The notes under the pieces were generated by a model, which saw only the letters and a list, made by a program, of their open reading frames with translations, searched no databases and had not been told where the DNA came from. From positions 907-64,906 of the forward strand of contig DBGCHZ010000037.1 in assembly GCA_048355915.1 (NCBI GenBank): DNA of 64,000 bases, given 5' to 3'. The position numbers and the translations under genes are program-made. Positions 42,343 through 51,856 of this stretch are shown here, one piece after another (the stretch's first letter is position 1; each line of letters begins with the position of its first letter). The stretch is from Clostridia bacterium. GTDB taxonomy: Bacteria; Bacillota; Clostridia; TANB77; CAG-508.

Positions 42343-43410
42343 TTAATTATATTTTTCTTGAATTTCTTTAATTTCCTCATAATGGTTCTTTAAAATATCC
42401 AAAAATACATCGGCCATTTGAGGGTCAAATTGAGTTCCTTTACATCTTTCGAATTCTGAAATTATAACATCCAAAGGTAAAGAATCACGATATGCTCTTC
42501 TTGAAGCCATAGCGTCAAAACTATCGGCGATTGCAGCAATTCTTGCCAAATAAGGAATATCATTTCCAGCTAAGTTTTTAGGATAGCCTGTACCATCGAA
42601 TTTTTCATGATGATGTTCAACTATTGGTAAAATATCATTAAATATAGTGGCGTTTGAAAGAATATGTACACCAATATTTGGATGTTGTTTTATTTGAGAA
42701 TATTCATCATCAGTCAATTTACTATTTTTTTGTAAGATTATATCAGGAACACCGATTTTTCCAATATCATGGAATAATCCTCCTAATCTAAGGTGTTCTA
42801 AATCTTGGTCAGATAATCCTAAATGTTTTCCTAATAAAACAGAGAATTCTGAAACTCTATCAGAATGACCTCTTGTATAACTATCTTTTGCTTCAACAGT
42901 GTATCTTAAAGTTTGTATACTTTCCAAGTATGAGTCCTGTAATTTTTGGTAAGTATCAGATAACTTTTCATTTATCTTTTTTATTTCATGCATTTGCTCA
43001 ATAGACTTTATACCAGACTCAATTAACAAAAGTAATTGGTCAAACTTATCACTTTTTTCACAATAGCCTTGAATATCTAATCTTTTAATTGTTTCAAGAG
43101 GAGGAGCTAAATCTTTATGTCCAGTAAGTAATAAAATATATAAATCTTTATTAAACTTTCTTATTTCCTCAACTACTTGATCTCCATGAATAGGTGTCAT
43201 TATAAAGTCTAAAATCATTAAGTCGAAATGTTCATTTTTTATTTTTTCAATAGCTTCCAAAGGGTCTGTAACACCAATAAAATTATATCCAGACCTTTTT
43301 AAAAATATAGATAGAGAATCTACAATTCCTTCTTCATCATCAACAGCTATAATTTTATAATTACTATTTGAATTATTTATATTATTTAAATTTTGTAATC
43401 CTTTTCTCAT
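42343..43410 (-). CDS. response regulator: receiver + HD-GYP phosphodiesterase domain
   Basis: receiver KIIAVDDEEG...LMILDFIMTP; HD-GYP HDIGKIGV...HHEKFDGTGYP; start uncertain (ATG at 43410 chosen; the ORF stays open to 43524). Confidence 0.75.
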   Translation of the reverse strand: MRKGLQNLNNINNSNSNYKIIAVDDEEGIVDSLSIFLKRSGYNFIGVTDPLEAIEKIKNEHFDLMILDFIMTPIHGDQVVEEIRKFNKDLYILLLTGHKDLAPPLETIKRLDIQGYCEKSDKFDQLLLLIESGIKSIEQMHEIKKINEKLSDTYQKLQDSYLESIQTLRYTVEAKDSYTRGHSDRVSEFSVLLGKHLGLSDQDLEHLRLGGLFHDIGKIGVPDIILQKNSKLTDDEYSQIKQHPNIGVHILSNATIFNDILPIVEHHHEKFDGTGYPKNLAGNDIPYLARIAAIADSFDAMASRRAYRDSLPLDVIISEFERCKGTQFDPQMADVFLDILKNHYEEIKEIQEKYN

Positions 43411-43575
43411 AACACATCCGAGCCTCCAACTAAGATTTTTTTCATTATATAAATAAAACTTTAAAAAATCAATATTTAGAACTAAAAAAATATCAGGAAA
43501 AATTTGACAAGTATATAAGTTCAAAAATATATATAATTTTTTAGCTTAAATAATTTAATTGATAATTGTCAAAAA

Positions 43576-49819: not shown

Positions 49820-50119
49820 AATATCACCCCGAAAATTTCTAAAATAATTATATATATAAATAGTAAAAAAATCAAATAAAATTGAAAAATTAATAATATT
49901 TGTCAAAAAAAGAATTTTTAAAATAATGTTATTAAAAAGTTATCATATATTATAATGTATATTCTGACCACATATACGGTTATATATATAATAATAATAG
50001 AATGTTCAAGTTAGCTTTATATAAGCATTACAAGAGCTTAATATAAAAAAGTAAAATAAAATATTGTAATTTAAACAGATTTAATATAAAATAAGCGTAA
50101 AGAAAGAGAGGGGATAACC

Positions 50120-51856
50120 GTGGAAAAAAATAAAAACAGAAAAGTATATGAATCAAGAGCAGTAAAAACATATAGGGAAATGATAGAATATTCCACAAAA
50201 AATTATGCAAAAAATGTAGCATATATATATAAAGAAGATTATACAGCTAAACAAATAAAATATATAGAAAAGACATATGAGCAAGTAGGGAAAGATATTA
50301 AAGCATTTTCAACACTATTATTAAATAAAAATTTAGAAGGAAAAAGAGTAGTTTTAATAGGAAATAATAGATATGAATGGTGTATAACATATTTTGCAAC
50401 AACAACAGGAAATATGATAGTAGTTCCAATGGACAAAGCTTTACCAGACAATGAAATACAAAGTCTAGTAAAAAGAAGTGAAGCAGAAGTAGCAGTATTT
50501 GATAAAAAATATGCAGAAATAATGAAAAAAATAAAAAAAGACGATAGTACAAATTTAAATATGTTAATTTGTATGGACGACATAGAAGATAGTGAAATAG
50601 AAAAATTCAAGGATTTACTTAATGAAGGAAATAAATTAGTAGAAAATGGGGATAAGAAATATGATAAAATAGAAGCAAACCCAAATGAAATGTCAATAAT
50701 GTTATTTACATCAGGAACAACAAATGAACCAAAAGCAGTAATGTTATCACAAAAAAATATATGTACAAATCTTACAGATATAGCGTGTTGGGTAAAATTA
50801 TATCCAACAGATAGACTATTATCATTCCTACCAATACATCACACATTTGAATGCACAATAACATTTTTATATGGATTTTATTCTGGTTGTACAGTTGCAT
50901 TTTGTGATGGATTAAAATATATTCAAAAGAACTTAGCTGAATACAAAATATCAATATTTGTAGCAGTGCCATTAGTTTTAGAAACAATGTATAAAAAAAT
51001 AACAAAAGCAATAGAAGAAAAAGGAAAAACAAAATTAATAAATACAATGTCTAAAATTTCAAATGTATTATTAAAATGTAAAATAGATTTAAGAAGAGTA
51101 TTTTTTAAACAAGTATTAGACAATTTTGGTGGTAATTTAAGATTAGTATTATATGGAGCTGCTCCAATGAATAAAGATACAATAATAGGGTTTAATAACT
51201 TAGGAATAGATTTGATACAAGGATATGGATTAACAGAAACCTCACCAGTAATTTCAGCAGAAACAGATAAAGAAAAAAGACCAGGTTCAGTGGGACTAGT
51301 ATTACCAAGTTTGGAAGCAAAAATTATAAATCCTGATGAAAATGGAGAAGGAGAACTAGCAGTAAAGGGACCAAGCGTAATGATGGGATATTATAAAAAT
51401 GAAGAAGAAAATAAAAAAGCACTAAAAGATGGTTGGTTCTATACAGGAGATTATGCATATATAGATAAAGATGGATTTTTATTTATAACAGGAAGAAAAA
51501 AAGATATTATAGTATTAAAAAATGGAAAAAATGTATATCCACAAGAAATAGAATTTTTAATAAATAAATTACCATATGTAACAGAATCTTTAGTATATCA
51601 AAGAGAAAAAAATAATACAGATACAATGTTATGTGCCAAAATAGTATATGATAAAGACATAATAAAAGATATATTAGGAGATAAAAATGAAGAAGAATAT
51701 AAAAATATTATTTGGAATGAAATAAAAGAAATAAACAAAACATTGCCAGTTTTCAAACATATAAAGAATATAGAAATAACAACAGAACCATTTGTAAAAA
51801 CAACAACACAAAAAGTAAAAAGATATGAAGAATTAAAGAAAATTGGTCAGGCCTAA
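50120..51856 (+). CDS. long-chain acyl-CoA ligase / fatty acyl-AMP ligase (AMP-binding superfamily)
   Basis: FTSGTTNEPKAV, GYGLTETS, YTGDYAY; GTG start after AGAGGGG; divergent from the NRPS. Confidence 0.8.
   Translation: MEKNKNRKVYESRAVKTYREMIEYSTKNYAKNVAYIYKEDYTAKQIKYIEKTYEQVGKDIKAFSTLLLNKNLEGKRVVLIGNNRYEWCITYFATTTGNMIVVPMDKALPDNEIQSLVKRSEAEVAVFDKKYAEIMKKIKKDDSTNLNMLICMDDIEDSEIEKFKDLLNEGNKLVENGDKKYDKIEANPNEMSIMLFTSGTTNEPKAVMLSQKNICTNLTDIACWVKLYPTDRLLSFLPIHHTFECTITFLYGFYSGCTVAFCDGLKYIQKNLAEYKISIFVAVPLVLETMYKKITKAIEEKGKTKLINTMSKISNVLLKCKIDLRRVFFKQVLDNFGGNLRLVLYGAAPMNKDTIIGFNNLGIDLIQGYGLTETSPVISAETDKEKRPGSVGLVLPSLEAKIINPDENGEGELAVKGPSVMMGYYKNEEENKKALKDGWFYTGDYAYIDKDGFLFITGRKKDIIVLKNGKNVYPQEIEFLINKLPYVTESLVYQREKNNTDTMLCAKIVYDKDIIKDILGDKNEEEYKNIIWNEIKEINKTLPVFKHIKNIEITTEPFVKTTTQKVKRYEELKKIGQA

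Follow-up and report, generated by a model that had tools for sequence, protein, structure and literature searches.

Alpha-hydroxyketone signals of Vibrio and Legionella are produced by a synthase (CqsA, LqsA) encoded beside the kinase with six transmembrane (TM) helices that detects its signal (CqsS, LqsS). Non-ribosomal peptide synthetase (NRPS) clusters of gut Clostridia reportedly make peptide aldehydes or pyrazinones, and few biosynthetic gene families of the human gut microbiome are said to be more prevalent than this group of enzymes. In the Rpf/diffusible signal factor (DSF) system of Xanthomonas (RpfB, RpfF, RpfC, RpfG), phosphorylation by a multi-TM sensor kinase switches on a REC-HD-GYP regulator, which then breaks down cyclic di-GMP (c-di-GMP), and an acyl-CoA ligase gene is linked to the system (PMC8042644). 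In the pherotype loci comQXPA of Bacillus subtilis and agrBDCA of staphylococci, the synthesis genes and the N-terminal sensor are variable while the kinase domain and the regulator are conserved (PMC4408185, PMC4008528); in comQXPA, the variable part is the N-terminal sensor of ComP, and the conserved parts are its cytoplasmic domain and ComA (PMC4008528). Here we analyze a 64-kb stretch of a Clostridia bacterium genome (contig DBGCHZ010000037.1; hereafter the window, whose first letter is position 1 of all coordinates), in which an NRPS, a histidine kinase and a response regulator are encoded on the minus strand and an AMP-dependent ligase lies divergently on the plus strand. By a little over an even chance, we consider this locus to be a self-recognizing signal/receptor module of the pherotype type in which an NRPS stands in for the peptide pheromone and the endpoint is a cyclic-dinucleotide phosphodiesterase, not a transcription factor. 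It looks like a private chemical-communication system because the sensor half is swapped together with the synthetase between near-identical strains, and that system probably feeds cyclic-dinucleotide signaling.

Compared with Rpf/DSF, the locus has a putative synthase of a lipid-like signal accompanied by an acyl-CoA ligase gene, a multi-TM kinase and an RpfG-type REC-HD-GYP regulator with intact motifs. It differs in that no crotonase of the RpfF type is present, the synthase being an NRPS; in that the kinase carries only HisKA and HATPase_c past the sensor, without the REC and HPt domains of RpfC; and in its Gram-positive host lineage and cassette-like polymorphism. With comQXPA and agr it shares variable synthesis and sensor parts, with a sharp boundary at kinase residue ~413–420, whereas its signal would be non-ribosomal, the operon contains no genes for a precursor peptide or processing enzyme, and its output stage is an HD-GYP enzyme where those systems use a LuxR- or LytTR-type factor, although one distant locus (L085) has a GerE-type regulator. 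On this comparison, our model of the locus combines the two precedents, and the locus itself is a member of neither family: crotonase, hybrid kinase, peptide precursor and DNA-binding output are all missing. The alpha-hydroxyketone systems, likened here by description and not by sequence, differ in their synthase, a pyridoxal phosphate-dependent acyl-CoA transferase, and in other parts of the phosphorelay. Compared likewise by description, the ClbN-type N-acyl-Asn starter modules of colibactin and related prodrug pathways also combine a starter condensation domain with an Asn-specific adenylation domain, but ClbN ends in an epimerase and passes its intermediate on, whereas the window module is reductase-ended and stands alone. 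The coupling was not recognized as a described system in the preliminary description of this DNA, and the searchable literature agrees: it contains no link of these NRPSs to a kinase or HD-GYP protein and no cassette polymorphism, while gene maps in the primary papers may show regulators uncommented, so that a prior mention there is possible.

Linkage of the synthetase, kinase and regulator

To follow the gene order in relatives, a check proposed in the preliminary description, loci were sampled from the NRPS, from the flanking gene Tex and from the sensor. The NRPS-anchored set comprised 75 genome loci found through patterns of the condensation (C) and reductase (R) domains, 63 of them with at least 4 kb of downstream sequence. 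Kinase and regulator follow on the same strand in 50 of these 63 loci. Among the exceptions are two loci with an inverted regulator (L051, L062), one with the order kinase–regulator–NRPS (L032), several Desulfosporosinus loci with an HD-GYP protein only, and four loci with neither kinase nor regulator; in L057, an Asn-type NRPS is frameshifted, and kinase and regulator are not found downstream.

The Tex-anchored set, which was blind to all three genes, consisted of 80 metagenome loci, 43 of which extend at least 9 kb beyond Tex. Regulator, kinase and NRPS are all retained in 40/43. Absence of the kinase and regulator beside orthologous NRPS genes had been named as the finding that would speak against coupling, and an NRPS without a kinase occurs in 0/43 of these loci. 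Two loci, L098 and L140, carry the regulator alone, with NRPS and kinase both gone; the L098 regulator has a degenerate REC domain and abuts an intact HtrA gene. The single apparent case of a kinase without an NRPS is L153, whose contig ends soon past a recombinase element. That element (L153 11021–15096) encodes a large serine recombinase, along with NUDIX and DUF4238 cargo genes, directly 5′ of the intact kinase and occupies the exact position of the NRPS in the sister loci L155, L156 and L161; a mobile element seems to have inserted at the cassette or into it.

Sampling begun from the sensor alone gave eight distant representatives. An NRPS with C, adenylation (A), thiolation (T) and R domains (C-A-T-R) adjoins the kinase in 4/8 (L080, L081, L085, L086), two of them in new gene orders. 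The remaining four comprise a HAMP-GGDEF fusion (L082), two representatives in other contexts, and L087, where the homologue comes after a gene with a weak PilZ match and is followed by a REC-DUF3369-HD-GYP regulator. Across lineages, at least five gene orders exist in unrelated flanks: NRPS–kinase–regulator; kinase–regulator–NRPS (L032); kinase–NRPS with a divergent regulator upstream (L086); NRPS–kinase facing an inverted regulator (L051, L062); and a kinase followed at a distance by NRPS–kinase–regulator, with a LuxR-type regulator (L085). In this last locus (L085 8001–17994), the C-A-T-R NRPS lies between two kinases of the window's sensor family, of which the upstream one is a hybrid with a REC domain, and a REC-GerE (LuxR-type) DNA-binding regulator takes the place of the HD-GYP protein.

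In the 50 NRPS-anchored loci with all three genes, the median distance from NRPS to kinase is 13 nt, with 25 nt or less in 38/50 and an overlap in 15/50, and the median distance from kinase to regulator is 147 nt. The linkage of the three genes is very strong, and these sequence comparisons support the view that NRPS, kinase and regulator form one functional module. The earlier notion of a self-contained signaling module holds with respect to the recurrent linkage and co-variation of its parts; it is weakened by a promoter-like element that the regulator has for itself and by a ligase that is optional.

Co-variation of the sensor and the synthetase

Relative to the window, the DHp/CA core of the kinase is 65–79% identical in relatives, including those in which the sensor half is just 8–30% identical, and the regulators are 66–85% identical. 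The sensor half is 43–77% identical where the NRPS has an Asn code, 28–29% where a single-module NRPS has another code and 8–25% beside dimodular NRPSs. Along the kinase, identity rises abruptly from 10–30% to 96–100% at residue ~420. Within the dimodular class, single-linkage clustering at 35% sensor identity was too coarse, and strict co-variation at the level of the code is therefore claimed for the 52 type-I sensors only. Within these 52, pairs with the same code have a sensor identity of at least 39% (median 51%), whereas the median for pairs with different codes is 27%, even among those whose kinase cores agree at 70% or more of positions; high sensor identity despite different codes occurs only where the codes are one residue apart. 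In the Tex-anchored set, sensor identity tracks the A-domain code rather than phylogeny: loci with 85–90% Tex identity and Thr or other codes have sensors 23–32% identical to that of the window, and loci with 77–79% Tex identity and the Asn code have sensors 51–53% identical to it.

The exchange can be seen between near-identical strains. L149 and L151 share 99.85–99.88% DNA identity over 16 kb, a stretch that takes in Tex, the regulator and the kinase core, and have no similarity past kinase residue ~413; there, a type-I sensor accompanies a single-module NRPS with the Asn code in L149, whereas L151 has a type-II sensor and a dimodular NRPS. The pair L164/L162 shows a like pattern, with the break at kinase residue ~388. 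By these alignments, the exchangeable unit consists of the NRPS and the sensor half, with the ligase as an optional part, placed on a constant chassis of kinase core and regulator. As in a pherotype locus, the synthesis gene and the sensor are hypervariable and co-vary on a conserved kinase core and regulator. A sensor that changes along with NRPS specificity while the core and regulator stay constant is to be expected if the kinase reads the NRPS product.

The same patterns could arise if the linkage had no functional meaning and the NRPS and sensor half were a hypervariable patch recombined as neighbors. Most loci do come from one gut lineage with conserved HtrA…Tex flanks, for which co-inheritance of adjacent DNA is expected. 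The linkage nevertheless recurs elsewhere with other flanks and gene orders (L032, L035, L044, L069, L072, L080, L081, L085, L086), in both independent strain pairs similarity ends at one and the same domain boundary within the kinase gene, and NRPS and kinase overlap translationally, so that we give this explanation very little credence.

Gene layout and expression signals

Pfam and NCBIfam analysis confirmed the four genes and the domains originally assigned to them (Table 1) in a window with a G+C content of ~24%. The longest NRPS open reading frame (ORF; 45572–49906) begins with TTG at 49906; the likeliest start is the ATG at 49819, which is preceded by the ribosome-binding site (RBS) GGGGTGA. 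Gene calls for the same species begin the NRPS further downstream (1400–1402 aa), and because gene callers choose this later start, an exact protein look-up with the window NRPS gave no match. The kinase ORF spans 43576–45582 and its protein ends at residue 668. As first described, the NRPS stop (TAA, 45574–45572) and the kinase ATG (45582–45580) form an 11-nt overlap, and the RBS of the kinase lies inside the NRPS. The regulator had been placed 51 bp after the kinase, a distance that corresponds to its longest ORF (42343–43524). It does follow the kinase; however, its likeliest start is the ATG at 43410, with GGAGG 12 nt 5′ of it, and independent gene calls on same-species contigs also give a 355-aa protein. 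The kinase–regulator gap is therefore 165 nt.

Table 1. Features of the NRPS–kinase–regulator locus and the divergent ligase gene (window coordinates)
Feature	Position	Strand	Description	Evidence
Single-module NRPS	45572..49819	-	1415 aa	Pfam, NCBIfam, motifs in translation
NRPS C domain	48509-49804	-	approximate span
NRPS A domain	47045-48448	-	approximate span
NRPS T domain	46778-46969	-	approximate span
NRPS thioester reductase domain	45599-46675	-	approximate span
Promoter-like element, NRPS–kinase operon	49847..49875	-	TTGATT-17-TATAAT	Promoter scan, alignment with relatives
Kinase RBS	45591..45596	-	AGGAGG, within NRPS reading frame, 8 nt 5′ of kinase ATG	Direct sequence reading
Variable sensor half of kinase	44413..45582	-	Residues ~1–390: TM1–5, Cache/PDC-like extracytoplasmic domain (~215–330), TM6, HAMP-like linker
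Conserved kinase core	43576..44325	-	Residues ~420–668: DHp with H438 (GGIAHNLKTP), N and G2 boxes	Pfam, motifs
Promoter-like element, kinase–regulator gap	43444..43472	-	TTGATT-17-TATAAT	Promoter scan, alignment
Response regulator	42343..43410	-	355 aa; REC (phospho-acceptor Asp in LMILD) and HD-GYP phosphodiesterase domain
Acyl-CoA (fatty-acid) ligase	50120..51856	+	578 aa; GTG start, RBS GAGAGGGG, divergent from NRPS operon

Promoter-like matches in the scan are no more frequent overall than in shuffled sequence, and therefore only two evolutionarily conserved sites were used. The first lies 27 nt 5′ of the NRPS ATG, giving a 5′ leader of ~20 nt; its hexamers are invariant in relatives whose NRPSs are 62–89% identical, while the surrounding DNA differs. 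The second lies in the kinase–regulator gap, and its hexamers are invariant across seven aligned relatives, in which the gap varies from ~100 to 390 nt. No terminator-like site was found by the terminator scan between the NRPS, kinase and regulator genes; the sole site (49796–49779) falls within the 5′ end of the NRPS coding region. The terminator between NRPS and kinase that would have argued for separate transcripts is thus not seen, in line with the short spacing of the two genes. Rfam searches at gathering thresholds and at E ≤ 1 found no riboswitch or T-box near the operon; 42000–52200 gave no match of any kind at E ≤ 1, no riboswitch was found elsewhere in the window, and the NRPS operon leader is too short for one. 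Given the tight NRPS–kinase spacing and the conserved element in the kinase–regulator gap, NRPS and kinase form the tight unit and the regulator probably has additional, independent expression from its own promoter-like element.

The NRPS and its predicted product

The NRPS matches Condensation (PF00668, 2e-70), AMP-binding (PF00501, 4e-67, together with PF13193), PP-binding (PF00550, 6e-8) and NAD_binding_4 (PF07993, 2e-43) in Pfam, and TIGR01733 and TIGR01746 (thioester reductase) in NCBIfam. Domains and motifs agree with the single-module C-A-T-R enzyme of the preliminary description, a domain order on one polypeptide that is characteristic of reductase-terminated NRPSs; the catalytic motifs HHIISDA, YTSGSTGKPK, NGKVDK, IDSL, GATGFLG and YVRSK are intact in the translation. 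In NCBIfam, the family matched best is that of the C-terminal half of AusA, the aureusimine synthetase, with a score far under its cutoff. Homologues form a graded series of single-module enzymes of ~1400–1450 aa, from 98% down to ~47% identity, beyond which come C-A-T-C-A-T-R enzymes of ~2470 aa, some of them at the same chromosomal site.

Judged from these similarities, the window NRPS belongs to the already known group of reductase-terminated NRPSs of gut Clostridia. It resembles those clusters, and AusA of S. aureus, in the terminal thioester reductase, which implies reductive release, and the gut clusters also in their uncultured Clostridia hosts and orthologous starter C domain. It differs in being a single module with an invariant Asn code, for which an N-acyl amino aldehyde or alcohol is predicted, not a dipeptide. 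This NRPS group also includes the ruminopeptin cluster of Ruminococcus bromii (Schneider et al., cited in PMC12327764).

The substrate code, which the preliminary description had suggested reading from the A domain, was obtained by mapping the ten specificity positions by GrsA numbering (residues 645, 646, 649, 686, 707, 709, 734, 742, 743 and 925). It reads DLTKIGEVGK and matches a known Asn code, which we take to be that of TycC module 1. The same mapping yields textbook Orn, Gly and Thr codes at other loci, and the mapping is therefore valid. DLTKIGEVGK is unchanged in 29/29 single-module gut-clade relatives (46–100% identity) and in further metagenomic loci; it is treated among the Asp/Asn and beta-cyano-alanine (Cya-3) codes (PMC12283262). 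Sequence comparison with eight dimodular enzymes gave 36–42% identity (257–372 bits) between the window C domain and their first C domain, compared with 21–27% (82–132 bits) for their internal C domain. The window domain is thus orthologous to the N-terminal C domain, within the starter-C clade, and this far better match marks it as a starter C domain, one that needs an acyl donor, as had been proposed. The dimodular enzymes are likewise said to N-acylate their products.

The divergent ligase is a plausible, but optional, supplier of this acyl donor. It has the domains of such an enzyme (Pfam AMP-binding, 4e-68, and AMP-binding_C_3), and its best NCBIfam match is the long-chain-fatty-acid--CoA ligase PRK06187 (4e-80, under the family cutoff). 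Only some of the related loci have the gene, and in L022 and L023 it runs in the same direction as the NRPS; the association with a divergent ligase first described therefore stands for the window and fails for the many relatives that lack the gene.

The predicted product is a fatty-acylated (N-acyl) asparaginal or asparaginol, the acyl chain and the reduction state being presumed. On chemical grounds, the Asn aldehyde is expected to cyclize onto its side-chain amide to give an acylamino-hydroxy-lactam. Precedent for reductive release of a C-terminal Asn comes from the rotihibins, which are asparaginol-terminated lipopeptides (PMC8552735).

Such a product might also be an outward-directed effector, for instance a protease inhibitor, with the kinase monitoring the cell's own exposure for feedback or self-protection, as lantibiotic producers do. 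The homology of the NRPS to the reductase-terminated gut group and the HtrA protease gene as a conserved upstream neighbor fit this explanation, which also predicts a sensed product and so accommodates the co-variation data. Yet the regulator has no DNA-binding domain and the operon no riboswitch, leaving no evident route to control of production or resistance; the cassette contains no immunity or export gene; and an Asn aldehyde that cyclizes would be a poor protease warhead. We therefore regard an effector role as unlikely.

The sensor kinase

Pfam identifies HisKA and HATPase_c in the kinase. The several TM helices and extracytoplasmic domain of about 110 aa reported previously are borne out by hydropathy and AlphaFold, which give six TM helices obeying the positive-inside rule and an acidic extracytoplasmic loop of 116 aa within residues 210–335. 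The AlphaFold model has a predicted local distance difference test score (pLDDT) of 82.5 for the whole kinase and 87.4 for the sensor, with a predicted TM-score (pTM) of 0.82 for the latter; Foldseek gave no significant match in the PDB. In the model, the extracytoplasmic domain has a PAS-like alpha/beta fold between two TM helices, as Cache/PDC domains do, and it is predicted to be a small-molecule-binding, Cache/PDC-like fold. The loop motif LNYPPxSI…Q and residues Y226, Y285 and G322 are near-invariant throughout the sensor family, for which a search with residues 1–413 gave 244 representative clusters among 1.84 billion proteins; most full-length matches are kinases of ~600–700 aa that align colinearly. 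The type-II sensors found beside dimodular NRPSs have ~7 TM helices and no extracytoplasmic domain.

The two-component system might instead sense another cue, either a host or environmental one or the free amino-acid substrate of the NRPS, and be located beside the NRPS just for joint expression. A Cache/PDC fold is typical of amino-acid and carboxylate receptors, the co-variation of sensor and A-domain code also fits sensing of the substrate amino acid, and some remote relatives in the sensor family have no NRPS beside them. Type-II sensors, however, cannot bind a soluble amino acid in that way and yet are swapped with the NRPS, and the translational coupling of NRPS and kinase (38/50 loci) together with their joint loss is hard to explain by co-expression alone. 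We consider sensing of another cue rather unlikely.

Some distant homologues show the sensor in other settings. In an Ignavibacteriales metagenome-assembled genome (JBLNBO01; L082 8001–9860), and also in L083, a multi-TM and Cache-like sensor ends in HAMP-GGDEF with no kinase; the L082 sensor is 26% identical over residues 25–435 and has no adjacent NRPS, and the same genome also has an NRPS–kinase pair on another contig (L061). In L084 (3361–7859), about ten tandem paralogous small ORFs of 86–147 aa (mostly 121–147), without Pfam match, lie 5′ of a distant kinase homologue whose paired regulator has only a REC domain recorded; this may be a different signal system on the same sensor family.

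The REC-HD-GYP regulator

The receiver-HD-GYP architecture was reproduced by Pfam (Response_reg, 2e-16; HD_5, 3e-34; also HD) and by a motif scan, which places HD at residue 214 and HHEKFDGTGYP at 267–277. The HD and HHExxDGxGYP motifs are intact in the window regulator and in 59/60 relatives. Its best solved homologues are V-cGAP3 (5z7c), specific for 3′3′-cyclic GMP-AMP (cGAMP), and PmGH (4mcw), a c-di-GMP enzyme; another solved HD-GYP homologue, 4r8z, is also a c-di-GMP enzyme. The predicted substrate is accordingly c-di-GMP or 3′3′-cGAMP. A regular-expression search for GGDEF motifs found none, either in the window or across 2.8 Mb of related gut-lineage loci, all covering this chromosomal region only. 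As the same sensor architecture is fused to GGDEF in L082 and stands beside a gene with a weak PilZ match in L087, these two cases would tie the sensor family to c-di-GMP more broadly.

Genomic surroundings

The exact kinase protein is present on at least 24 gut-metagenome contigs, human gut assemblies included, with the same neighbors, which identifies the source as an uncultured Clostridia species that recurs in the gut. Housekeeping genes flank the locus: Tex, an IS200-like Y1 gene, an ABC-F gene, PGA_cap and CorA on one side, and a split HtrA protease gene, tRNA-Arg, a helix-turn-helix (HTH) gene and an M18 aminopeptidase on the other. The HtrA-type protease is divided between two ORFs, Trypsin_2 (52055–52762) and PDZ (52794–53207). 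The identical split on four independent same-species contigs (L076–L079) points to a disruption fixed in the species and not to a sequencing error; L098 has one intact 378-aa gene. The Y1 gene (39114–39860), a 248-aa ORF with an N-terminal IS200-like Y1 transposase domain only, lies between the ABC-F gene and Tex, occupies the same place on same-species contigs, and may be domesticated or associated with repetitive extragenic palindromic (REP) sequences.

With recF at 419–1504, the window begins near the replication origin. Between gyrB (1572–3500) and gyrA (9868–12339), a very AT-rich interval of ~6.3 kb (15–20% G+C, 3500–9868) encodes a TraG/VirD4-like P-loop ATPase (4997–6709), a 467-aa protein with weak REC and ParA-like matches (6684–8087), ORFs of unknown function and an HTH gene. 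Because gyrB and gyrA are normally adjacent, the interval has the look of an insertion. A second mobile-element-like block follows on the minus strand (12553–18223), with an IstB/DnaA-like ATPase fragment (12553–12960), a DnaB_2/DnaD-type replication-initiation protein (13582–14571) and a TraG/TrwB-type coupling protein (16502–18223), past which lies a tRNA-Lys/Glu/Thr cluster (19128–19404). Two adjacent giant ORFs of 1470 and 1404 aa (23504–32147) contain DUF11, SdrD_B and SpaA-type Ig-like domains; their products probably act at the cell surface as adhesins or pilin-like proteins, which makes them candidates for control by a cyclic dinucleotide. The block at 57808–63895 contains a tyrosine integrase (57808–59199), an S24/HTH CI-LexA-like repressor (59345–59971), a FuFi-1 RNA (Rfam RF02986, 85.5 bits; 60591–60841, minus strand), Sipho_Gp157 (62034–62561) and AAA_24 (62610–63338), and is likely a prophage or remnant.

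Discussion

In the pherotype-type module that we favor, the starter C domain would condense an acyl donor onto Asn loaded on the T domain, the donor being acyl-CoA from the neighboring ligase where present and otherwise from primary metabolism. The R domain would release N-acyl-asparaginal or, after a second reduction, N-acyl-asparaginol. This lipophilic product would leave the cell and be read, as the presumed ligand, by the kinase encoded on the same mRNA through its six TM helices and Cache-like sensor. Phosphate would then pass from H438 of the kinase to the Asp of LMILD on the REC-HD-GYP regulator, both motifs being present, and the activated HD-GYP domain would lower c-di-GMP (or 3′3′-cGAMP), altering surface or behavioral traits. 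A strain-to-strain swap of the NRPS and sensor, with the ligase where present, would create incompatible signal/receptor types on the constant chassis.

Several points weigh against this reading. Cache domains often bind free amino acids or carboxylates, and the products of the dimodular relatives are reportedly read as host-protease inhibitors. Adjacent genes are co-inherited anyway, and part of the co-variation could be hitch-hiking; 4/8 distant sensor homologues are located outside NRPS contexts. Owing to the conserved promoter-like element before it, the regulator is not strictly co-expressed with the NRPS and kinase. A directed search of the window found no phosphopantetheinyl transferase or exporter. 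On the output side, V-cGAP3, the best solved HD-GYP homologue, is specific for cGAMP, and the window and gut-lineage loci, which represent ~4% of the genome, yielded neither a diguanylate cyclase nor a PilZ protein nor a c-di-GMP riboswitch. Ligand binding, phosphotransfer and enzyme activity are steps that we infer beyond the domain content, linkage and co-variation.

The finding that the synthetase is tied to a sensor kinase and exchanged with its sensor as one cassette suggests a bacterial signaling role with strain-level "dialects", and the natural cassette types, such as L149 and L151, offer matched and mismatched product–sensor pairs. More tentatively, and with somewhat less than even confidence, we propose that the reductase-terminated NRPSs, widespread among gut Clostridia, are autoinducer synthases of a previously unrecognized Gram-positive quorum-sensing class, in which signals derived from N-acyl amino (or dipeptidyl) aldehydes are read by co-translated sensors, the pairs co-diversify as pherotypes, and the output acts enzymatically and directly on a cyclic dinucleotide and not through transcription. 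If true, this would constitute an Rpf-like route in Firmicutes from an extracellular lipid-like signal to cyclic-dinucleotide turnover and would link secondary metabolism to surface and behavioral traits in uncultured, small-genome gut Clostridia.

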